The notes: generated from the sequence alone by a model not told the origin. A DNA stretch of 31,298 bases from Deltaproteobacteria bacterium (GCA_017861095.1 JAGFXI010000004.1:1-31298), one strand, 5' to 3'; positions 19,576 through 29,396 are shown, counted from the stretch's first letter. Numbers and translations are program-made.

Positions 19576-20469
19576 CTATCCTGCCAGTTTCTCCGCCAAC
19601 GTCAATACAACAATCCCGAGCCCGATGCGGTACACCGCAAAGGGAACGAATCCGCGTCTCCGCACCCACGCCATGAACCACGCCACCGAGGCGTAGGCCA
19701 CGATGAAGGAAACAACAAAGCCGATCGCCAGCACCACCCATCCGTGCGCGTCAATGTGCGTTGCCCCGATCGGGTTGGCACCGCCCGGACGGAGCGATTT
19801 GAAGAGGTCGTATCCCGTGGCCACCACCATTGTCGGAATCGAGAGGAAGAAAGAAAACTCCAACGCCGAGGCCCGCGACATCCCCGCCACTTGCCCTGCC
19901 GCAATCGTGGCCATGGACCGCGAGGTTCCTGGAAAGACAGCGGAGAGCACCTGGCACGCGCCGATCCAGATCGCCTGCGCCAGATTCATCTCCTCCATGT
20001 TCCAGGTCCGGATCCGGCTCTCCGGGGCGCCCGCCCCGGCGGTTTCCGAGGGCGCGTTCACCGCATCCACGATCCACATCACGATGCCGCCGATGACAAG
20101 CGCCCCGCCCATGACATAGAGGCTCTCCAGGTGTTTGCCAATGATCTTCGTCAACAGGAAAGCGGGCAGGGCCGTCATGAGAAAAGCCACGATGGTGAGG
20201 CCCAGCGGATGGGTAAGCAGCGTCCGGTCTCCGCGTTTGCCGCCGGGAAAGTCGGAAAGGAACGCCACGATGCGCGAGCGGAAGTAGATCGGCAGGCAGA
20301 GGATGGCGCCGAGCTGGATGACGATGGAATACATCTTCCAATAGCCGTCTGAGAGGCTCACATGGCAGAGCGCCTCCGCTATCCGTAGATGCGCGGTGGA
20401 ACTCACGGGGAGAAATTCCGTCAGGCCTTCGATGACGCCCAATAGCAGGGACAGCAGGTAGTCGTTCAC
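19576..20469 (-). CDS. uppP: undecaprenyl-diphosphate phosphatase (BacA/UppP)
   Basis: GVIEGLTEFLPVSSTAH, VIQLGAIL, FPGTSRSMATI, EFSFFLSIP, FVPFAVYR. GTG start 20469 with GGAGG RBS. Confidence 0.96.
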   Translation of the reverse strand: MNDYLLSLLLGVIEGLTEFLPVSSTAHLRIAEALCHVSLSDGYWKMYSIVIQLGAILCLPIYFRSRIVAFLSDFPGGKRGDRTLLTHPLGLTIVAFLMTALPAFLLTKIIGKHLESLYVMGGALVIGGIVMWIVDAVNAPSETAGAGAPESRIRTWNMEEMNLAQAIWIGACQVLSAVFPGTSRSMATIAAGQVAGMSRASALEFSFFLSIPTMVVATGYDLFKSLRPGGANPIGATHIDAHGWVVLAIGFVVSFIVAYASVAWFMAWVRRRGFVPFAVYRIGLGIVVLTLAEKLAG

Positions 20470-20815
20470 GGTGCCTCCAGAGGATGAATTGGGAGTGTAT
20501 CGCCGAAATGGCCGACCCTCTTCCGTGTGATTTTGGTTCGACAAAGGGAACCAACGTGAGATTGGCAATACGTCGCTTCTGGCGGGAAGAGGTATGGCAC
20601 GGAGGTGTCCCGGGTGTCAAGCATCCAGGACCGCCGGGCGCTGTTCCAGGTGGCGGACGTATTTGAGCCTGATCGGCGTTGCCGGCTCTCCATCTCTCCA
20701 TTGGATTCTCCCCCCTTGGAGAGGCAAGGGGATTGTGGTATGAGCTTATCGACAACGCCGGTCGGTCACTCCTGTCAGCCCATGGCCGATCGGGCAGCGA
20801 CCCTGAGGCAACACC

Positions 20816-21451
20816 TTGATCAAGGCCGTTATTTTCGACTTCGGGCGCGTCATCTCGGCTCAGAAGCCCCCGTCCCTCTTCCACACCTACGAAAGAGACT
20901 TGGGACTCACGCCGGATACGATCAATACCATCATGTTCCAGAGCGGGGCTTGGGAAGAGGCTCTCCGGGGTCGGAAAACGGTGGAAGAATTCTGGCAGGC
21001 GATCGGGCCTGAGCTCGGGCTGAAGGCCGCCGCCGAGATCGAGGCCTTTCACCACCGCTACCACGCCGATGAGGCCGTCAACGAGGGCGTGCTCCGCCTG
21101 ATCCGTCGGCTCCGCCGCCGGTACAAACTGGCGGTGCTCTCGAACTCGCCACCCGGTTTGACCCATTGGCTGGATAGCTGGAAGATCCTCGACCTTTTCC
21201 ATGTGGTATTCTGCTCCGGGGACGAGGGGATCGTGAAGCCGGACCCGAGGGCCTTCGCCCGAACCCTGGCGCGCCTCGACGTGAAGCCTGAGGAAGCGCT
21301 CTTCATCGACGACACCCCGGAGTATGTAGCCGCCGCTCGCGCCCTGGGGCTCCGCGCCGTAGTTTTCACCACGGCCGACAGGCTCGAGGAAGCCGTGACC
21401 GATCTTCTCGGGGCCGATCACCATGCGGACGTCTCGAAGTCAAGCAGTTGA
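20816..21451 (+). CDS. HAD-superfamily phosphatase (YihX-like)
   Basis: IKAVIFDFG motif I, LSN motif II, GIVKPD motif III, FIDD motif IV. Confidence 0.9.
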   Translation: MIKAVIFDFGRVISAQKPPSLFHTYERDLGLTPDTINTIMFQSGAWEEALRGRKTVEEFWQAIGPELGLKAAAEIEAFHHRYHADEAVNEGVLRLIRRLRRRYKLAVLSNSPPGLTHWLDSWKILDLFHVVFCSGDEGIVKPDPRAFARTLARLDVKPEEALFIDDTPEYVAAARALGLRAVVFTTADRLEEAVTDLLGADHHADVSKSSS

Positions 21452-21503
21452 CCCCATGTCAGCGGTGAGATCGGGGGCGAGGTATAGGAGAGACAGGAGA
21501 GCT

Positions 21504-22145
21504 ATGGCCATCGTTGTGAGAACTGAAAAAATCCAGATCGATCGACTCGTCCTTGGTCCCTTCAGTACCAATTCCTACGTCATTACGTGCCGGGAGACCG
21601 CCGAGAGCCTCGTTGTGGATGCTCCAGGCGAGATCGGGGACATCGTCACCGCGCTACGCCATACCCGTCCAAGGTGTATCCTCATCACCCATGGCCATAT
21701 GGATCACATCTCGGGGTTAGCTGATCTGAAGAGAGCCTTGTTCCTTCCCGTCGCCGCCCACCCAGGCGACGCCGAGGCTCTACCCGTCGACCCCGATATC
21801 CTGCTTGGCGATGGCGATCTCTTGCCTCTGGGATCGATCCAGCCTAAGGTGCTCCACACGCCCGGCCATACCCCCGGAAGTGTCTGCCTTCTCACGGACA
21901 CATATCTCCTCGCCGGTGACACTCTGTTCCCTGGAGGGCCCGGTCACACCAGCTCACCCGACGATTTTCAGCTCATCATCCAGTCCCTGACCCGGAGGAT
22001 CTTCCCCCTGCCGGACGATACTCAAGTCTACCCCGGTCACGGCGACGGGACTGTCCTCGGCAAAGAAAAAAAGGCCTTTAGGGCCTTCTCTGCCCGGATG
22101 CACAAACCGCATCTTTGCGGGGATGTGGTATGGGAATCTTCTTGA
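21504..22145 (+). CDS. MBL-fold metallo-hydrolase (glyoxalase II/YcbL-like)
   Basis: THGHMDHI, HTPGHTPGS, GDTLF, VYPGHG. AGGAGA RBS before ATG 21504. Confidence 0.93.
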   Translation: MAIVVRTEKIQIDRLVLGPFSTNSYVITCRETAESLVVDAPGEIGDIVTALRHTRPRCILITHGHMDHISGLADLKRALFLPVAAHPGDAEALPVDPDILLGDGDLLPLGSIQPKVLHTPGHTPGSVCLLTDTYLLAGDTLFPGGPGHTSSPDDFQLIIQSLTRRIFPLPDDTQVYPGHGDGTVLGKEKKAFRAFSARMHKPHLCGDVVWESS

Positions 22146-22313: not shown

Positions 22314-23015
22314 CTACTTGGGGAGTTCCACCCGATGAAAGGCCTCGGCCAGCTTGAAGGTTTCTCCCTCCGCCATCTTCATACAGCGCTCCCGCAGCCA
22401 CTCTTCGATGTGCGGGTTGGCGAACTCCCGCACCTGGCTCTCATGACAGCGCAGGGCGGCGACCTTCCGATCGAAGGTCCCGGTGATATCGGAACGGTAG
22501 TTGATATCCTCGGCGCCCCAGAAGAGGAGCTCCTCCACCTTGTGAGGCTCCAGTCCTTGGGCCAGCAAGTCGGGATAAGCCATATGGTCCCTAGCGAAGG
22601 GGAAAACTGCATCGAGGACAACCTGGCCGGTCACCCGGTGGTCTCGATGCCAGATGTATCGCCGGTAGGGATCGCAGGTGACCACGATATGGGGACGGAA
22701 CATCCTGATGAGACGAACGATCTCTTTGCGAAACTCGGCCGTGTCCTCCAGGCTCTGGTCCGGATAACCCAGAAAGACAACCTCTCGCACCCCCAGCAGA
22801 CGGGCGGCGGCCAGTTGCTCCCTCTTCCGGATCTCCGCCAGCTTCCCGGCATCCAGGCTCCGGTCGGTGGTCCCCTTATCTCCGTTGGTGCAGACCACGT
22901 AGACGACCTGCTTTCCTTCTGCAGTCCAGCGCGCCACAGTGCCCGCAACGCCGAACTCGCCGTCGTCCGGATGAGCTGTCACTACCATGACGTCGGTTTC
23001 CGGTTTCACCCGCAC
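22314..23015 (-). CDS. PIG-L/LmbE-family N-acetylglucosaminyl deacetylase (MshB/BshB-like)
   Basis: AHPDDGEFG (HxDD), TNGDKG, RKREQLAAARLLG, HRDH zinc motifs. Confidence 0.92.
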   Translation of the reverse strand: MRVKPETDVMVVTAHPDDGEFGVAGTVARWTAEGKQVVYVVCTNGDKGTTDRSLDAGKLAEIRKREQLAAARLLGVREVVFLGYPDQSLEDTAEFRKEIVRLIRMFRPHIVVTCDPYRRYIWHRDHRVTGQVVLDAVFPFARDHMAYPDLLAQGLEPHKVEELLFWGAEDINYRSDITGTFDRKVAALRCHESQVREFANPHIEEWLRERCMKMAEGETFKLAEAFHRVELPK

Positions 23016-23123
23016 TCCACCTCGTGAGTTCGACCTACACGCACTCGTCTCGTTACCCGTCCGTTTTCCTCGGCGCAGACTCGATCCCCTGGCCCGGGAA
23101 TGAGCGCGCCCCAGAGTAGCCCT

Positions 23124-24386
23124 TCACCTGCCTGATGAGGCTGAGGCGCACGCGCCCAGCACCATCCGCGAAAGTGCCCCAAAAGAGCCGGAATCGCCGC
23201 GCCGGCACTTGAGGAGGATGTTGTACTGATCGATCATGGCGGCGGCCACGCCCCGAATCATCTCGCCGGCAAAGAGCCGTGCCGAGCCGAGCACTCGATC
23301 TATTCCCTGGGCCAGGGCCCGGGGCGAACCTTCGGAGACCACGCATCCGTTCACACCCTCGCGCAGGACGCTCGGCATGACGCCGACCGCTGTCGCCACA
23401 ACGGGCGTCCCGCACGCCAAGGACTCGAGAGCAACGAGCCCGAAGCTCTCGTAGTAGGAGGGAACAACCAGCACGTCGGCAGCACTGTAGTAGGGCGGGA
23501 GCTGCTCCTGGGCGACCCTTCCGGCCAGGGTCACCGCTTCCTGGATCCTGTAAACTTCACTCAAATGCCGCACCTGCTGCGATTCGGAAGTCTCGTCGCC
23601 GTTCCCGCCAACGATCACCAGTCGGAGCCGGCGCGGCTCCTGGACATGGGTCGCGGCGGCAAGGAGCCGCTCGATTCCCTTGATGGGCGCGAACCGGCCG
23701 ACGAAAAGAACTACGGCCTCCTCGGGGGAGAAACCCAGCTGCTGCCGTGCCCTCGCTTTATCCATGGGGCGGAAAAGCTCCAGATTGACGCCGCAGGGCA
23801 CGACCCCAATCCTCTCCGGGCGGGCGCCGTAGTACCGAATGAGGTGATCTCGTTCGCGCGGAGTTGGGGCGAGAACGCGGTCACAGGTCTCGACCAGTTC
23901 CCTTTCGGTCGCCAGGCGAAAGTCTGGCTCCCGCTCCGCCTCGACCGTCATGTTCTTCAAGGCACCGAGAGTGTGAAAGAGGATAATGTGCGGCACCTCC
24001 CATTGATCTCTCGCCCAGTTCCCCACCAGACCTGACAGCCAGTAGTGACTGTGAACCAGGTCATAGTGAACCCCTTGCTCGGCGCGGAACCCGTCCAGCT
24101 CTCGACAAAAATCAGCGAGATGGGGATAGAGCGCCCACTTGTGAAGATGGCCATTCGCTCCGGCTCGAAGATGGATGAGGTTGACCGTCTCCGAGAGCCG
24201 AACGGTGCGATCCCCTTGAGAGTCCTGGAGGCGAGTGAAGATGTCTACCCGGTGGCCCCGTCTTCCAAGTTCTTCGGCCAGTTCCCGGATGTAGACACTC
24301 ATTCCCCCCGTATCCTGGGTACCCAGCTCGCCGAGGGGACTCGAGTGGACGCTGAGCATGGCAATGTTAAGCTGTTCCCTTCGCAA
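23124..24386 (-). CDS. GT-B (GT4) glycosyltransferase, MshA-like
   Basis: SVHSSPLGELGTQDTGGMSVY (MshA-type), HSHYWLSG, HTLGALKN, GRFAPIKG, PSYYESFGLVALESLACGTPVV. TTG start 24386 follows GAGGTG. Confidence 0.9.
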   Translation of the reverse strand: MRREQLNIAMLSVHSSPLGELGTQDTGGMSVYIRELAEELGRRGHRVDIFTRLQDSQGDRTVRLSETVNLIHLRAGANGHLHKWALYPHLADFCRELDGFRAEQGVHYDLVHSHYWLSGLVGNWARDQWEVPHIILFHTLGALKNMTVEAEREPDFRLATERELVETCDRVLAPTPRERDHLIRYYGARPERIGVVPCGVNLELFRPMDKARARQQLGFSPEEAVVLFVGRFAPIKGIERLLAAATHVQEPRRLRLVIVGGNGDETSESQQVRHLSEVYRIQEAVTLAGRVAQEQLPPYYSAADVLVVPSYYESFGLVALESLACGTPVVATAVGVMPSVLREGVNGCVVSEGSPRALAQGIDRVLGSARLFAGEMIRGVAAAMIDQYNILLKCRRGDSGSFGALSRMVLGACASASSGR

Positions 24387-24434
24387 CGTCGGCACCTCAT
24401 GACCGCAGGTCAACCGGAACCGGCAGCTCCCTCC

Positions 24435-25430
24435 TCAACGCAGTGCGACCCCGCACCGATAGAGACGAACTGGCGTTCCCCCCAAACGATATTTGTAGGT
24501 TTCCCCGCCTTTCAGAAAATCGTAGGTTCTTCTTCCCCGCTCGATGCTATCCCTGATGCTGAATACCTTGCATAGCAAACCCACACTGAGAGCCCGAAAC
24601 TGATCGTCGTAGGCGTTGTTATAGAGATAAACCGTTGCATTATAATCAAAACACATGACCGTAGCAGCAGCAATACCGTCGAGGTGGAGAAAAAAGAGTC
24701 TCATGATCCCTTCTGCCGCCATGGCCCCAGCAAGGGAGCGAAAAAAGGAGGCCATCGGTGCGGTCATGAAGACTGCCTTGTCCGTGCGGTTCATGGCGAA
24801 GAGGATCAGGAAAGTCTCTATCTCCCGCTCGACCTCGTTCCTCCCCTCGACGAGCCGATACGTGACCGGCCCGACCTCTCCCAACCGTCTCAACTTCCGC
24901 CGTATCTCGTGCCGCTCCTTGCCGCTCAAGGCGAGCAAGAATGCATCCCACGTTGCCGGCAGCGGCATCTCCAGACTCACATCCTCCGGGTGAGCCGTGA
25001 CTTCGTAGCCGAGTTCCCGGGCCATGGGCACAAGACGGGTCATCACCGAGGAGTCGACCCGCACCGGTCCGAGATCAAGGAGGGCCACCCCGACGCCCCT
25101 CAGGTGCTCCAGGAGAATTCTGAAAAACTCGTCTTCCCGTCCCGGAGCGACGATAAAGTCGAGGTAATCACACACATCCCGATCACCCATGAACCGAGCC
25201 TGCTCTCCGTCTATCAGAAGCGGGGCAATGCCGACGAGATCGTTTCCCCGCCGGACTGACAAGCGATAGGGATTCCCGCCCGAACGGAGGGTAGTCCACC
25301 ATGCTTGCAGCCAGGGCGGCAGAACGAAGAGGCAGCTCCACCTTAGGGTCTTGTGAGCCTCCCGCCAGAGAGAAGCGAGGCTCTCGAAGCTCTCCTCTGA
25401 GACCTTGTATGTGCCGCAGGTCCGCTCCAG
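24435..25430 (-). CDS. GNAT-family protein, CelD/BcsL (Acetyltransf_6)-like
   Basis: FVLPPWLQAWW, GIAPL, CDYLD, LSGKERHEIRRKLRRL, YLYN...SVGLL...YDFLKGGETYKYRLG. Start uncertain: CTG 25430 after GGAGGT, or ATG 25523. Confidence 0.85.
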   Translation of the reverse strand: MERTCGTYKVSEESFESLASLWREAHKTLRWSCLFVLPPWLQAWWTTLRSGGNPYRLSVRRGNDLVGIAPLLIDGEQARFMGDRDVCDYLDFIVAPGREDEFFRILLEHLRGVGVALLDLGPVRVDSSVMTRLVPMARELGYEVTAHPEDVSLEMPLPATWDAFLLALSGKERHEIRRKLRRLGEVGPVTYRLVEGRNEVEREIETFLILFAMNRTDKAVFMTAPMASFFRSLAGAMAAEGIMRLFFLHLDGIAAATVMCFDYNATVYLYNNAYDDQFRALSVGLLCKVFSIRDSIERGRRTYDFLKGGETYKYRLGGTPVRLYRCGVALR

Positions 25431-25519
25431 GTTCCCACCTCCGTGCTGGCACCCCGGCTCTTCTGATCCACGGCGTGGATCAGGGGCCTGAGTGTCGCGC
25501 CACCCCGCACCTTTACCAC

Positions 25520-25536
25520 GCATTATGCGGGTTAAG
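25520..25536. repeat. isolated terminal repeat of the 188-bp element family, overlapping a stop codon
   Basis: GCATTATGCGGGTTAAG is 15/17 identical to 13115-13131 and contains the TAA stop (minus strand, 25532-25534) of the upstream gene. Confidence 0.55.
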
Positions 25537-26800
25537 TGAGAAGCCGCCATCGTGATCCGTCCCGTGTGTCCTCTACCACGATCTCCGCGCGCTGGAGGCT
25601 TTCGCGAATAGCATCCGCCTCCCGCCACTGCCTGCCCTGCCTGAATTTCTCCCGCAGCTGGAGAAGCTCATCCACGAGCGGCGCCAGACAGTCTGCCCTG
25701 TCTCTGGGAGTCGTGTCTAGCTTCACCCCGAGCGACACGATGAGCTCGCGCAGAATCTCCCGCGCCTGCGAGATGAACTCCGGGTTCTCGAGGTCCTGCT
25801 GGGCCTTCCAGATGATGTGGTCAAGATCGAGAAGGGCACTCGTAGCCGCCCTTGGATCATGCCGTTCCAGTCCATTTCGAAAGCCTGCCTCGAGGGCGTG
25901 AATGCTCTCCCAGAAAGACAACTCTCTTGATTCAGCAACCGGCAAAGACGGCATTTGTTCTGGTGCAGAGAGCTTACGGTCCGCCCCGACCTTACCGCCG
26001 CGGAGGATCTCGAGCGAGAATCTTTCGCCCTTCTCGAAGATCACTTCCTCGCCACGGTGTCTGAGCGCGATCCGACCGACTCCCCGCACCACCCCCTCGT
26101 CTCTGTCAAGATCGAGGAGACAGGCCGTGTGCTCATCCAACCCGAGAACTCTTACATCCTCGGGGAGCTGGGATTCAAGCGTCCGGAACCGCGGCTCACC
26201 CATATAGCAGAATCGGGTGTCATGGGTTCCCCCCTCAGCGTTGTTCCAGTGGGGGATCACAACGAGGCTGAAACCGAAATGCCGGAGGAGGTCCATCCCC
26301 TCCGCCCAGTGGGGTGCCTCACCCACTTTGTAGATCTCATAGACCGGCAAGGTAAGGCGTCCAACGGTGAGCGCCGCGGCGCTGGCGGCAACCAGGCAAC
26401 CACCGCCCTCGATGCGCCGGATGAGAATCTCCGGGATGGGCGTCTGTAGCCACTGGCGGACAGCGTAGGTGGGGCTGCCGGGCCCGATAAGAACGAAGTC
26501 CGCCTCCCGCAAGCCCTGATACGCTTGCTCCGCCTGGTAAGGCGCGCCCAACCCTTTTCCTTTGAAGGAAACGAGGGTCATAGGTCGGCGGATATGGAAA
26601 CGAAAGTACTCGATGGCTCTCTCTGAGATCTGATCCACGTTGAGCTGAAAGCCGGCTGGCGTATCGAGAAAAACGGCCCTGGCGGGTCTGGGGAAGCGCG
26701 CGAGGAGTTCCTTGTGCACCTCAACCATGGTAGCCGTGAGCTCCCCGGAACCCATCAGGGCGATAACGCCTCTGTTCGAACAGATGTGGGAGTCTTTCAT
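25532..26800 (-). CDS. peptidase S51/cyanophycinase-like (class I GATase-like fold) domain fused to a CysRS-type anticodon-binding domain
   Basis: N-terminal ALMGSGE, IGPGSPTY, AASAAA nucleophile Ser, IPHWNN His and GLDEHTA Glu. C-terminal LREKFRQGRQWREADAIRESL...IVVEDTRDGSRW matches the CysRS C-terminus. No HIGH/KMSKS catalytic core. Confidence 0.85.
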   Translation of the reverse strand: MKDSHICSNRGVIALMGSGELTATMVEVHKELLARFPRPARAVFLDTPAGFQLNVDQISERAIEYFRFHIRRPMTLVSFKGKGLGAPYQAEQAYQGLREADFVLIGPGSPTYAVRQWLQTPIPEILIRRIEGGGCLVAASAAALTVGRLTLPVYEIYKVGEAPHWAEGMDLLRHFGFSLVVIPHWNNAEGGTHDTRFCYMGEPRFRTLESQLPEDVRVLGLDEHTACLLDLDRDEGVVRGVGRIALRHRGEEVIFEKGERFSLEILRGGKVGADRKLSAPEQMPSLPVAESRELSFWESIHALEAGFRNGLERHDPRAATSALLDLDHIIWKAQQDLENPEFISQAREILRELIVSLGVKLDTTPRDRADCLAPLVDELLQLREKFRQGRQWREADAIRESLQRAEIVVEDTRDGSRWRLLT

Positions 26801-27274
26801 GGATCTTGTGGTCCGGTCGAAGCGGTGATTCTTTGAAGAATTCCAACAAAGAAAAGATTCTATCGTAATATACACCCGCTGACAACAAAAGTCCTCGACT
26901 CACCGGTGTCGCCCTGGGCCCGACGATTCGAGTACGGAGAGTCCTGTGGTATGAACGCGGCTGCGGTCAAGGAAAGGCTGTACAAGTCAGGGCTGTGCCA
27001 GAGGCTGGGTCATCTGAGTGTCCGGAGCCATAACCTTCTCGTCGATTCAAGGCAGGCATCCCGGACTTTGTGAGCCATTCCACTACAAGGCAGGGCCTCC
27101 CCCTCCACTATCTGCTGACGCGATCACGCCTCGGCGTGACGCCTTTTTGGAGCAGATCCCCTATCTCGCGCGACCCGATCGCGGCTGCCCGCCGGTGCAA
27201 CTCAGGATCCGGAGCCTGTCGATGAAGAAGCCTCTCCCACAGGGCTCCTCCTCATAGACCCTACAGCTCGGAGA

Positions 27275-27379: not shown

Positions 27380-27793
27380 TCAATGGTAGGACGAGTCGGA
27401 ATCGGTTTGTGAAGCGGGAAGGGGTAGCTGTTGTACGGGCACTTGATTCTCTTCTGCCATCCTGATGATGCCGTTTACATTTCCCCCCTCTTTGATAGCC
27501 AGCGCCTTCGCCGTAACATCTCCGGTAATCCTACCCGTAGCGCCCACCTCCAAGCGGCCATGGGCCCTGATATTTCCCATAATGTGTCCGTAGACTTCGA
27601 TGGTCTCTGTCACGATTTCGGCCTCCACTATAGCCTCGGACCCGACCACCACATCGCCCTTGGCCATAATTCGGCCTTTGACCCTCCCCTCGATCGCGAT
27701 GCTTCGGTCGCTCATGATGTCACCCTCGAAAACCGTCCCAGCGCCGATCAAGGTATCCATCGGGGAAGACTTCCGGTTCTCCTTCCATTTCAT
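27380..27793 (-). CDS. bactofilin (polymer-forming cytoskeletal protein)
   Basis: DTLIGAGTVFEGDI, IEGRVKGRI, VEAEI, V.GHI.GNI, ITGDVTAKALAIKEGGNVNG beta-helix repeats. Confidence 0.93.
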   Translation of the reverse strand: MKWKENRKSSPMDTLIGAGTVFEGDIMSDRSIAIEGRVKGRIMAKGDVVVGSEAIVEAEIVTETIEVYGHIMGNIRAHGRLEVGATGRITGDVTAKALAIKEGGNVNGIIRMAEENQVPVQQLPLPASQTDSDSSYH

Positions 27794-27836: not shown

Positions 27837-29396
27837 CTACTCCTCCCGCGCGGCCTCGTGAGAAACTGGTCTTGGCCGAGTCACGTTGGTAGGATCCAAG
27901 GTTTGCGATCCGTCCTCTTTCCTATCTCCATCACTGCAATGTTCACTCCAATCCTCTTTCCGGCTCGCACCGCCCATTCTCAAAGCTTGGGCGAAACTCA
28001 CCCTTCCCGTCTGCCTCATCATCGAGGCGAAAATAATATCGGCGACTTCGGCCTTCTCAATGAAGGTGCAGAACACGTCAAAGAAGTCACTGGAGGCGAC
28101 GAGAGCTATTTCGAATTGCTTGGCCCTCTCGGCAACGCTCTCAGGAAAGTAGGGCATCTCTTGCGAGTCCCTCTTGGCGACCGGCAGGTTCTTCCAGGCG
28201 TTTCCGAGAAGGACTCCTTTGATTCTCGTCTTAGTGTTTTCCTCGTAGAGCAACAAGTGATCAGTGAGAATCCGGAGGTCGGTAAGGGAAATGGCGTTTT
28301 CCCTCGCCTTTATGTAGGCTAGGAGTCTGCTTTCCCCATATTCTATGATTCGTTCCTCGTTGGCATACTTGGATTTGTGCAGTGTTGCTCCCAGCTTTGT
28401 GGCTAAGAGATCGAAAGTGCGTTCCAATTCCGAGCCCGACGTGTAAAGGACCTTCTTGTACTGTTCCAGCTCCGTCTTGCTTTTTTCCAGGTTACGGATG
28501 ACCCTCTTCATGTACTTGATCTTGTTTCTATTGATCTGGATCTCTTTGTCCAGCTTGGCGATGCCCGGCATTGCGATTTTTTTTACCCAACCCGGGGGTT
28601 CGCTTTCCTGCGGTGCTCCCGTCAGGTCCTGAAGGAGGACGGTGATCGCTTCCCGGTCTTCTAAATCGGAGAGGAGCGGGAGAACAGTGAAAAACCCGGA
28701 GACAAGGCGCGGCCTCTCCTCGTCGGTCGTTTTCTGGGAGTAGTCTGTCTTCGCCGGCTCTGGTTGGAAGATCTCATAGTGGAAGCGCACGGCGAGAGCC
28801 TTATCGTATCGGTTCTCTATCAACGGCTCGAAGTGAACCTTGTAGCGCAGACTCGGATATTTCTGCATGTACTGTGCGAGCGCCTCGAGTGACAGTCCCT
28901 GTTGATTCTCAAGGAAGTAATACTGCCACTGGCTCATTTCCTTGAATTTAGCAAAGTAGTTCTTGTAAGAGTTGTGACATATTTTGATGGATTCGCCGGT
29001 CTCCTGAAAGAGCTGGATGTTTATCGGCGCCCACGAGTAATTCGAGATCGTTCTGAGTTCCTCCTCATGTGGTCGTACGACTTTACTTGGTCGATGGTCG
29101 GCTCTCTCGTCTTTGAGTGCCGGCTGTTTGCCTTCCGATTGGACTGTCCGGTGAAAATCACTAAGAACGATCACCTGGCCCTTGGATTCGAGGAGTCGCA
29201 GGAGAGCAAGGCAGATCTCTTTCAGCCGAACATAGGAAACTCTGGCGAGAGCTTCCTGGGTCAAGGACCGCACGTTGATAATCGCGACATCGTAGTCGGG
29301 CAGAACCGGCAGGGGCTCGTCATACCAATCCACACACTTGGCATTGAGATGACCCTTGGACCCTATCACCAGGCATCTCGGGGCTGCTATGCTCAT
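27837..29396 (-). CDS. hypothetical 519-aa protein with a coiled coil and a possible restriction-endonuclease-like C-terminal fold
   Basis: Long ORF with GGAG RBS that looks more AT-rich than its flanks. Coiled coil IAKLDKEIQ...LEKSKTELEQYK is followed by LYTSGSELE...DLRIL...KGVLLGNAW...FP. The fold call is weak. Confidence 0.6.
   Translation of the reverse strand: MSIAAPRCLVIGSKGHLNAKCVDWYDEPLPVLPDYDVAIINVRSLTQEALARVSYVRLKEICLALLRLLESKGQVIVLSDFHRTVQSEGKQPALKDERADHRPSKVVRPHEEELRTISNYSWAPINIQLFQETGESIKICHNSYKNYFAKFKEMSQWQYYFLENQQGLSLEALAQYMQKYPSLRYKVHFEPLIENRYDKALAVRFHYEIFQPEPAKTDYSQKTTDEERPRLVSGFFTVLPLLSDLEDREAITVLLQDLTGAPQESEPPGWVKKIAMPGIAKLDKEIQINRNKIKYMKRVIRNLEKSKTELEQYKKVLYTSGSELERTFDLLATKLGATLHKSKYANEERIIEYGESRLLAYIKARENAISLTDLRILTDHLLLYEENTKTRIKGVLLGNAWKNLPVAKRDSQEMPYFPESVAERAKQFEIALVASSDFFDVFCTFIEKAEVADIIFASMMRQTGRVSFAQALRMGGASRKEDWSEHCSDGDRKEDGSQTLDPTNVTRPRPVSHEAAREE

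Follow-up and report, generated by a model that had tools for sequence, protein, structure and literature searches.

A FemX-like transferase coupled to an MshA-like glycosyltransferase in a deltaproteobacterial gene cluster: a candidate route to a mycothiol-type thiol

Within a 31,298-nucleotide stretch of DNA from a deltaproteobacterium (Deltaproteobacteria bacterium, GCA_017861095.1 JAGFXI010000004.1:1-31298; the whole stretch is called the window hereafter), positions 22314-26800 are filled exactly by four co-oriented open reading frames (ORFs) on the minus strand, which encode an S51-like serine hydrolase fused to a tail of cysteinyl-tRNA synthetase (CysRS) type (S51C), a double-GNAT protein (FEM), an MshA-like GT4 glycosyltransferase, and a PIG-L-family deacetylase. 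We consider the chances about even that this cluster makes a soluble aminoacyl-glucosaminyl-inositol, most likely Cys-GlcN-inositol (GlcN, glucosamine) or a close analogue, that is, a thiol of the mycothiol type. The window lies on one contig of a 2.85-Mb metagenome-assembled genome (MAG) from an anaerobe of Desulfobacterota type; the MAG is 76% complete, and its nearest named relatives are Syntrophobacteria. Its proteins were analyzed by Pfam and NCBIfam profile scans, AlphaFold2 (AF2) models, Foldseek, and profile searches of the PDB, and these searches yielded the observations reported here on protein families and folds, residue conservation, gene order, and co-occurrence. A preliminary description, made from the sequence alone, had placed four such genes at these positions as a mycothiol-like operon, and the ORFs as well as the Pfam and NCBIfam matches bear out both the layout and the families claimed.

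FEM (24435-~25523, minus strand; conserved core 24438-25415) is a predicted aminoacyl-tRNA-dependent transferase resembling FemX and Sba18. Pfam assigned FEM to PF13480 (Acetyltransf_6, E 3e-29); it scored 17.3 bits against FemAB_like (PF04339), under the gathering score of 27, and an orthologue in genome G024 scored 23.2 bits against FemAB (PF02388), under the gathering score of 24. A FEM profile gave no match in the PDB at the sequence level, and the fold search alone succeeded: the best Foldseek matches of the AF2 model (pLDDT 94.9, pTM 0.91) were 6snr (S. aureus FemX), 9wqy (Sba18), 7z5y, 9wqw, and 1ne9, at E ~1e-11 and TM 0.63-0.74. The closest structures are all aminoacyl-tRNA-dependent, namely FemX, Sba18, Sbb17, Weissella FemX (FemX-Wv), and domains of MprF/aminoacyl-phosphatidylglycerol synthases, whereas tandem GNATs using acetyl-CoA gave clearly lower TM values. 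The PDB entries of Sba18 and Sbb17 bear the name "aminoacyl-tRNA-dependent peptide synthase" and contain streptothrisamine, an amino-sugar compound, as ligand.

In an alignment of 27 FEM orthologues, domain 2 opens with a basic helix, RHExRRKLRR, and a Tyr-Lys pair lies close to the C-terminus, both being invariant. FemX has a tRNA-binding helix together with Lys305, the equivalent pair in DhpH-C being Phe328-Lys329, and a related enzyme, Orf11, aminoacylates an amino-sugar intermediate (reviewed in PMC12945691). The basic helix and Tyr-Lys pair of FEM appear to be the equivalents of the tRNA-binding helix and catalytic Lys305 of FemX. FEM shares the double-GNAT fold with FemX, Sba18, Sbb17, and Orf11, its basic helix and aromatic-Lys pair probably have counterparts among such enzymes, and its predicted acceptor is an amino-sugar amine; it differs from the FemX/Sba18 group in its Pfam family, which is Acetyltransf_6 and not FemAB, and in being always coupled to an MshA-like GT4. 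In the same alignment, the conserved protein begins approximately 70 codons into the longest frame, and since the longer reading from a GTG, reaching to 25628, is not conserved, FEM probably starts at the ATG near 25523. Open frames of 711 and 817 aa in the closed genome G021 had suggested a FEM-GT4 fusion, which was rejected: its FEM and GT4 genes occupy different frames and overlap by a few bases.

The gene following FEM (23124-24413, minus strand) encodes a retaining GT4 glycosyltransferase whose best NCBIfam match was TIGR03449 (MshA) at 344.1 bits, below the equivalog cut-off of 462.5, the next family scoring 137 bits. Its best PDB matches were C. glutamicum MshA (3c48, E 9e-74) and the Tll1590 sucrose-phosphate synthase (6kih, E 5e-71), and weaker matches were obtained with N-acetylglucosamine (GlcNAc)-phosphatidylglycerol synthase, GT4 families for exopolysaccharide (EPS) and lipopolysaccharide (LPS), and BshA (111 bits). 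His133, Lys236, Glu316, and Glu324 are substrate-binding residues of C. glutamicum MshA (PMC4506291). In the alignment of the window's GT4 to 3c48, H133, K236, E316, and E324 are all conserved, being residues common to other retaining GT4 enzymes as well. The inositol-phosphate pocket of MshA is reported to comprise Lys78, Tyr110, Thr134, Arg154, and Asn25 (Vetting et al. 2008); on hand mapping of these residues to the 3c48 alignment, K78, Y110, T134, and R154 appear to be kept, with Ser in place of N25. The enzyme is predicted to use UDP-GlcNAc and a phosphorylated acceptor, which is probably 1L-myo-inositol-1-phosphate.

The last gene of the operon (22314-23015, minus strand) encodes a PIG-L/LmbE-family GlcNAc de-N-acetylase (PF02585, E 1.5e-36) for the MshB/BshB role, and its translation contains the metal/catalytic motifs AHPDD and HRDH (HxxH). 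Among NCBIfam models, BshB1 (100.9 bits; cut-off 182.5), BshB2 (94.5), Mca (78.7), and MshB (58.8; cut-off 224.35) all scored below their cut-offs; the best PDB match was the archaeal diacetylchitobiose deacetylase (2e-37), followed by BshB (1.8e-14) and MshB (2.4e-10). Three roles of mycothiol synthesis had originally been mapped by family. Those of GT4 as MshA and of PIG-L in the MshB/BshB family held, and the casting of the GNAT as MshD did not: the MshD model TIGR03448 gave no match to FEM and at best 19 bits anywhere in its own genome, and the fold of FEM is nearest to tRNA-dependent Fem enzymes. MshD-like tandem GNATs are encoded separately from FEM: one, scoring 106 bits on TIGR03448, lies inside the cluster of locus L001, and one is found close to that of L025.

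We examined 251 genomes of the phylum, the same set in every search; because these genomes are related to each other, the counts are descriptive and do not serve as statistical tests. MshA-like GT4 genes (threshold E <= 1e-55, with 7 candidates scored per genome) occurred in 39 of the 251 genomes, and FEM stood directly upstream on the same strand in 36 of the 39; in one further genome, G151, contig ends left its position undecidable. G028 and G067, which belong to one genus, have S51C and no FEM; in these two genomes only, an MshC-like gene, coding for a 404-aa CysRS/MshC-like ligase, adjoins the GT4, in the order MBL-ligase-GT4. This ligase has no anticodon domain, its match to the 466-position cysS model covering 1-375; it scored 371 bits against MshC and keeps HIGH, KMSKS, and the Zn ligands C28, C209, and H234, with Ser in place of E238. 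That FEM and an MshC-type cysteine ligase share the slot beside the same GT4 suggests non-orthologous displacement, and because the MshC-like ligase takes the slot of FEM in these genomes, FEM is the better candidate for the ligase step, and cysteine for its amino acid. Between ligase and GT4 in G067 (L110, contig C119, 1254-1757, minus strand) lies a sequence that weakly resembles just the C-terminal GNAT half of FEM (23% identity, E 2e-9) and could be a remnant or a single-domain GNAT. The closest sampled relative, G147 (L109, contig C145, 4187-6011), has beside an OsmC peroxiredoxin another CysRS/MshC-like ligase without the anticodon domain (417 aa), which scored 375 bits on MshC and 380 on cysS; G147 also carries an S51C-GFO-GFO-FEM-GT4 operon.

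S51C was found in 33 of the 251 genomes and FEM-like genes in 49, with FEM present in 29 of the 33 S51C carriers and adjoining S51C in ~15. At least 30 of the 33 carriers have the MshA-like GT4 core, 28 scored directly and two (G045 and G083) deduced from S51C-FEM adjacency. Conversely, S51C occurs in 28 of the 39 GT4-bearing genomes and, because it is missing from 11, is an accessory to the FEM-GT4 core, the invariant pair being FEM and GT4. The preliminary description had made the S51-CysRS fusion the fourth enzyme of the pathway, a rank that these 11 genomes take from it. Its proposal of a tRNA-dependent route to a Cys-GlcN conjugate survives in part: the FemX-like, predicted tRNA-dependent FEM is in keeping with such a route, with the ligase role probably passing from S51C to FEM.

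Other thiol pathways were sought in the same genomes. In the genome of the window, ino1/MIPS is present, as the preliminary description had asked one to check, and mshC, bshC, gshA, gshB, and MshD-like genes were not found, although at 76% completeness this does not prove their absence. Its single cysS-like gene scored 114 bits to MshC, and no MshC-type catalytic-core paralogue was found. The 32 other S51C carriers yielded no gshB over cut-off, no bshC, and no mshC over cut-off. The only full cysS-like gene found in the MAG (G000, contig C454:20847-22226; L004/L010) scored 309.6 bits against a cut-off of 340 and lies in an 808-aa frame; divergent CysRS-like genes in frames of ~770-870 aa also stand beside a normal cysS in the relatives G147, G031, G070, G178, G208, and G238. 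A second C-terminus of CysS_C type (42 bits) at the start of contig C466 (positions 4-141; L005) may belong to a normal cysS or to another tail-bearing protein cut by the assembly.

Eighty-three loci around S51C homologues were fetched and their neighbours scored by tblastn with a query set. Adjoining S51C were FEM in 36 loci, GT4 in 32, PIG-L in 24, a pair of GFO/IDH/MocA oxidoreductases (GFO pair) in 19, HAD in 8, MBL in 7, and MIPS in 7. The best models for the GFO pair are inositol 2-dehydrogenase and xylose dehydrogenase, and one member is fused to ThuA. The gene order is constant, S51C-[GFO-GFO]-FEM-GT4-PIGL, and recurs in 36 of the 83 loci, on records from Desulfobacterota, Nitrospirota, Nitrospinaceae, and unclassified bacteria, so that the expected conservation of the gene set across phyla was found and the arrangement is not due to chance. 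Carrier MAGs bear the genus names Thermodesulfovibrio, Desulfosarcina, Desulfatibacillum, and Desulfofustis, among others. One locus, L017, reads S51C-GFO-GFO-GT4-PIGL, FEM being absent from the ~21 kb fetched around it. Seven further loci (L095-L101, in G068, G197, G029, G103, G136, G227, and G167) contain a distant FEM-like gene and GT4 (27-30% identity to those of the window) that are transcribed away from a MIPS gene of the short type, and neither PIG-L nor S51C was present in the ~16 kb fetched; they show the Fem-GT4 pair to be more ancient and more widespread than its cysteine-linked version. These loci may represent a different aminoacylated glycosyl-inositol system. In G024 (L106, contig C47, 5402-9613), a genome without S51C, FEM-GT4 comes directly after genes for an ECF sigma factor and an anti-sigma factor of the zf-HC2 (ZAS) type and is itself followed by an HD phosphohydrolase gene; the sigma/anti-sigma neighbours would fit redox control, which is only suggestive.

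The cluster is bigger than four genes and extends to an HAD-IA family phosphatase (20816-21451, plus strand) and a glyoxalase-II (GloB)-like MBL-fold hydrolase (21423-22145, plus strand; PF00753), whose start overlaps the end of the HAD gene; the two (20816-22145) are convergent with the operon. They were overlooked earlier because a long frame on the opposite strand hides the HAD gene. This 557-aa minus-strand ORF (19751-21424) has no family match, overlaps the HAD gene, and was treated as a probable shadow frame in a GC-rich genome. HAD scored 61.8 bits on TIGR01509, over the cut-off of 29.4, is 55% identical (tblastn) to its counterpart located after PIGL-MIPS in L062, and is a candidate for dephosphorylating GlcNAc-inositol-phosphate. 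The best NCBIfam match of MBL was TIGR03413 (GSH_gloB), with 81.7 bits against a cut-off of 200.8. MBL homologues flank the operon in 7 other loci and also belong to the MshC-like/GT4 cluster of G067 and G028, and this recurrence beside both the FEM and the MshC-like versions fits a thiol cofactor.

MIPS (PF01658) was detected in 31 of the 33 S51C carriers compared with 123 of the 218 other genomes, the two carriers without it being 85% and 90% complete. A search by PF07994 alone had given ino1 in only ~10 of 15 operon carriers, and this count was discarded since PF07994 does not detect MIPS of the short type. For one of the MIPS types, mycothiol_INO1 is the best-scoring model. MIPS and HAD adjoin the operon in several loci and MIPS accompanies S51C in 31 of 33 carriers, and therefore the acceptor is probably inositol phosphate. 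The acceptor, which the preliminary description had left as X, is thus less open than before.

S51C (25532-26800, minus strand; 422 aa, with its ATG at 26800) consists of a hydrolase of peptidase-E/cyanophycinase fold (residues ~10-265), a disordered linker (278-290), and a helical bundle and anticodon-binding domain of CysRS type (~296-420); in its AF2 model (pLDDT 88.9), the S51 domain and the linker are followed by the helical bundle and then by a small beta domain. Pfam PF03575 (S51) gave no match in the window's S51C, and relatives scored 17-34 bits against a cut-off of 23.9, which only some pass. A 42-member profile of the family matched 6nqc, a cyanophycinase-like exopeptidase, over residues 6-257 (E 8.7e-15), and CysRS chains over the last ~120 residues (E 1e-11 to 1e-15). 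In Foldseek, TMt values of 0.70-0.78 were obtained with peptidase E, cyanophycinase, and 6nqc, and the tail of the model matched E. coli CysRS-tRNA (1u0b). The last ~50 residues match PF23493 (CysS_C) at 30.7 bits against a gathering score of 23, and residues 357-444 correspond to positions 377-464 of the NCBIfam cysS model.

S51C has the fold of peptidase S51 enzymes (peptidase E, cyanophycinase, and the acI-B1 peptidase 6nqc) and a Ser-His-Glu triad in the equivalent motifs (xSAAA elbow, IPHxN, and DEHTA), with S140 present in 41, H184 in 42, and E223 in 41 of 42 family members. It differs from them in a sequence identity of just 12-19%, in invariant motifs of its own (GSGE, GPGSP, and HDTRFCYMG), and in its fusion to the CysRS helical bundle and anticodon-binding domain. 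The annotated neighbours of S51C included no cyanophycin synthetase. The anticodon is contacted in E. coli CysRS by R427, W432, D436, and R439 (PMC13449415). The tail of S51C keeps these contacts of the CysRS C-terminal domain (335-460, PDB 1u0b) as R387 (40/42), W392 (aromatic in 41/42), D396 (42/42), and R399 (42/42). Unlike CysRS, S51C is without the Rossmann catalytic core, HIGH/KMSKS, and the Zn site, its tail being joined to a hydrolase instead; the kinship is confined to the tRNA-binding end, as had been stated at the outset.

The S51C family is large: clustering at 50% identity gives 1656 groups, and the fusion occurs in at least 592 species genomes. Variants of S51 with tails of other aminoacyl-tRNA synthetases were looked for and dismissed: nine of ten longer or two-stretch variants carry CysS_C, some weakly, one (P0263) had no Pfam match, and no other synthetase tail was seen. 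A distant clade (~40% identity) from Chloroflexota, Dormibacterota, and Actinomycetota lacks neighbouring FEM, GT4, and PIG-L genes, and in nine of its loci an alpha/beta hydrolase gene lies just upstream of S51C. The ends of these two genes overlap in Chloroflexota/Actinomycetota (L068-L072, L078, L084, L085, and L090); genes of GFO/IDH/MocA type stand upstream of the alpha/beta hydrolase in L078, L085, and L090, as a pair only in L090 (a Mycobacterium sp. MAG). S51C also stands alone in Actinobacteria, Dormibacterota, and Firmicutes.

From these data, we infer the substrates, the product, and the way in which FEM and S51C divide the work as follows. MIPS, encoded elsewhere in the genome, would supply inositol phosphate, onto which the MshA-like GT4 would move GlcNAc from UDP-GlcNAc. 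The HAD phosphatase would then take off the phosphate, a step of mycothiol synthesis that is not known to have an assigned enzyme, and PIG-L would strip the N-acetyl group, exposing the amine. FEM would acylate this free amine from an aminoacyl-tRNA, replacing the ATP-dependent ligase MshC. S51C, with its Ser-His-Glu triad intact, would dock on the GCA anticodon of tRNA-Cys as an accessory factor, and there it might present Cys-tRNA-Cys to FEM and so fix the amino acid, perform a second cysteinyl transfer or a Cys transfer of its own via a seryl-ester intermediate, or hydrolyze something on tRNA-Cys. The GloB-like MBL would act on thioesters of the product. L017, with no FEM in the ~21 kb fetched, and the FEM-less genomes G028 and G067 argue for a catalytic role of S51C itself, and the S51C-less genomes argue against an obligatory ligase. 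A bolder possibility, which we regard as rather doubtful, is that S51C is the first of a new aminoacyl-tRNA-dependent class, a Ser-His-Glu enzyme of peptidase-E fold that relies on an anticodon reader borrowed from CysRS, takes Cys from Cys-tRNA-Cys as a seryl ester, and hands it to an amine; together with FEM it would form a so far unknown ATP-independent route of mycothiol type in anaerobes such as Desulfobacterota, Nitrospirota, and Nitrospinota.

Several observations weigh against a cysteinyl-glucosaminyl-inositol product. All four msh-like matches are under their equivalog cut-offs, and GT4 is as near to a cyanobacterial sucrose-phosphate synthase as to MshA, so that its acceptor could be another sugar or polyol phosphate. 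The co-occurrence argument is weakened by MIPS being common in the phylum (61% of genomes). The displacement of FEM was seen in two genomes of one genus, where the ligase is as CysRS-like as MshC-like, and nothing points to cysteine in the 11 core genomes without S51C. In Actinobacteria and Chloroflexi, S51C is separate from GT4 and FEM and is paired with an alpha/beta hydrolase, and the PIG-L-less version of FEM-GT4-MIPS may form an ester or act on a lipid. A tRNA-Cys gene was not among the 29 tRNAs of the 76%-complete MAG, which is uninformative.

The roles of the two tRNA-linked proteins might also be the reverse of those proposed, with Ser140 of S51C taking Cys as an acyl-enzyme and passing it to the GlcN amine, and FEM, in the position of MshD, adding a second residue or a cap to the amine of that cysteine from another aminoacyl-tRNA. 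The intact triad and anticodon contacts of S51C speak for this exchange, as do L017, where no FEM lies in the ~21 kb fetched, and the S51C-bearing, FEM-less genomes G028 and G067; moreover, cyclodipeptide synthases, with their ping-pong chemistry, provide a precedent in that a seryl-ester intermediate formed from aminoacyl-tRNA is feasible (PMC12945691). We nevertheless think it unlikely, given that FEM without S51C is found in 11 of the 39 GT4 genomes, that FEM and not S51C is replaced by the MshC-like ligase and invariably adjoins GT4, and that S51C occurs alone in Actinobacteria, Dormibacterota, and Firmicutes. Still less probable, in our estimate, is a module that decorates a membrane lipid or envelope glycan, for example a GlcN-inositol-phospholipid head group aminoacylated from tRNA, much as MprF does with phosphatidylglycerol. 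The fold of FEM also matches MprF/aminoacyl-phosphatidylglycerol synthase domains, GT4 has its weaker matches to GlcNAc-phosphatidylglycerol synthase and EPS/LPS GT4 enzymes, the PIG-L family includes GlcNAc-phosphatidylinositol deacetylase, and the distant FEM-GT4-MIPS clusters have no PIG-L in the stretches fetched. However, MshA is far ahead for GT4 (344 versus <=137 bits), Pfam gives the cluster genes no transporter, flippase, or polyprenyl-linked family, and the HAD, GloB-like hydrolase, and MshD-like neighbours fit the metabolism of a small-molecule thiol.

S51C could be a quality-control or recycling hydrolase that deacylates mis-acylated or modified aminoacyl-tRNA-Cys and is only loosely linked to the other genes, for instance by guarding the tRNA-Cys pool on which FEM draws. 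Its hydrolase fold and triad would suit this function, as would its solitary occurrence in many lineages and its lack in 11 of the 39 core genomes; yet S51C is the first gene of one operon with FEM-GT4-PIGL in 36 loci of several phyla, and at least 30 of its 33 carriers have the GT4 core. S51 enzymes are not known to act on tRNA, and we judge this explanation to be very unlikely. As for a secondary-metabolite cluster of aminoglycoside or streptothricin type, in which MshA and MshB homologues would build a pseudodisaccharide to be decorated by a tRNA-dependent enzyme, MshA-/MshB-like pairs do occur in 2-deoxystreptamine aminoglycoside pathways, and FEM has its nearest structural relatives in Sba18 and Sbb17. 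The cluster is, however, small, constant in order in hundreds of anaerobes of several phyla, and set among the housekeeping genes dxr, ilvC, leuBCD, and psd, and no aminotransferase, cyclase, resistance, or export family is among the neighbours that recur across loci, all of which makes such an origin highly improbable.

In comparison with mycothiol synthesis (Ino1, MshA, the MshA2 phosphatase, MshB, MshC, and MshD), the cluster shares an MshA-like GT4 with the donor-binding residues, an LmbE/PIG-L deacetylase, and a linked MIPS; its HAD would fill the phosphatase step, some loci have an MshD-like GNAT, and an MshC-like ligase replaces FEM in one genus. Most carriers, including the present one, differ in having a FemX-like, presumably tRNA-dependent transferase for MshC, with S51C in addition. 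The hosts differ as well: the cluster is found in anaerobic Desulfobacterota, Nitrospirota, and Nitrospinota, and mycothiol in Actinobacteria, to which mshA-D were confined in the survey by Hiras et al. 2018 (PMC6282198). With bacillithiol synthesis (BshA, BshB, and BshC), the cluster has in common the logic of a GT4, then a PIG-L deacetylase, then cysteine addition, and its PIG-L scores higher on BshB than on MshB. By contrast, its GT4 scored 111 bits on BshA and 344 on MshA, BshC was not found in its own genome or in the 32 other carriers, and the predicted linkage is to inositol and not to malate. No paper was found in the literature on a tRNA-dependent route to a GlcN-inositol thiol, on an S51-CysRS fusion, or on such a thiol of sulfate reducers.

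Upstream of the ATG of S51C stands a candidate sigma-70-like promoter (26857-26885, minus strand; read from 26885 to 26857 as TTGTCA-17-TAGAAT), which matches the consensus at 10 of 12 positions and was identified by consensus match only. Upstream of this region lie a bactofilin gene (27380-27793, minus strand) and a 519-aa ORF (27837-29396, minus strand) without a family match, and no link of either to the cluster was seen in other loci. The remaining window is occupied by housekeeping genes, i.e., dxr, rseP, ilvC, psd, pssA, and leuBCD, and also an ECF sigma region; no tRNA gene and no Rfam family was found within the window.

What is new here is the assignment of FEM to the Fem/Sba18 fold, the displacement of FEM by an MshC-like ligase, the linkage to MIPS and HAD, and the extension of the cluster to HAD and MBL. 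These results provide a concrete gene set for the study of thiols in anaerobes and may point to an undescribed protective thiol in many of them. If the proposed pathway is true, GlcN-based thiols such as mycothiol and bacillithiol would reach new phyla, and tRNA-dependent amide formation on an amino sugar, so far known from antibiotic pathways, would take part in primary metabolism. It would also give a role to the widespread orphan S51-CysRS fusion, and would bear on redox biology, the handling of mercury and other metals, and oxygen tolerance in these organisms.

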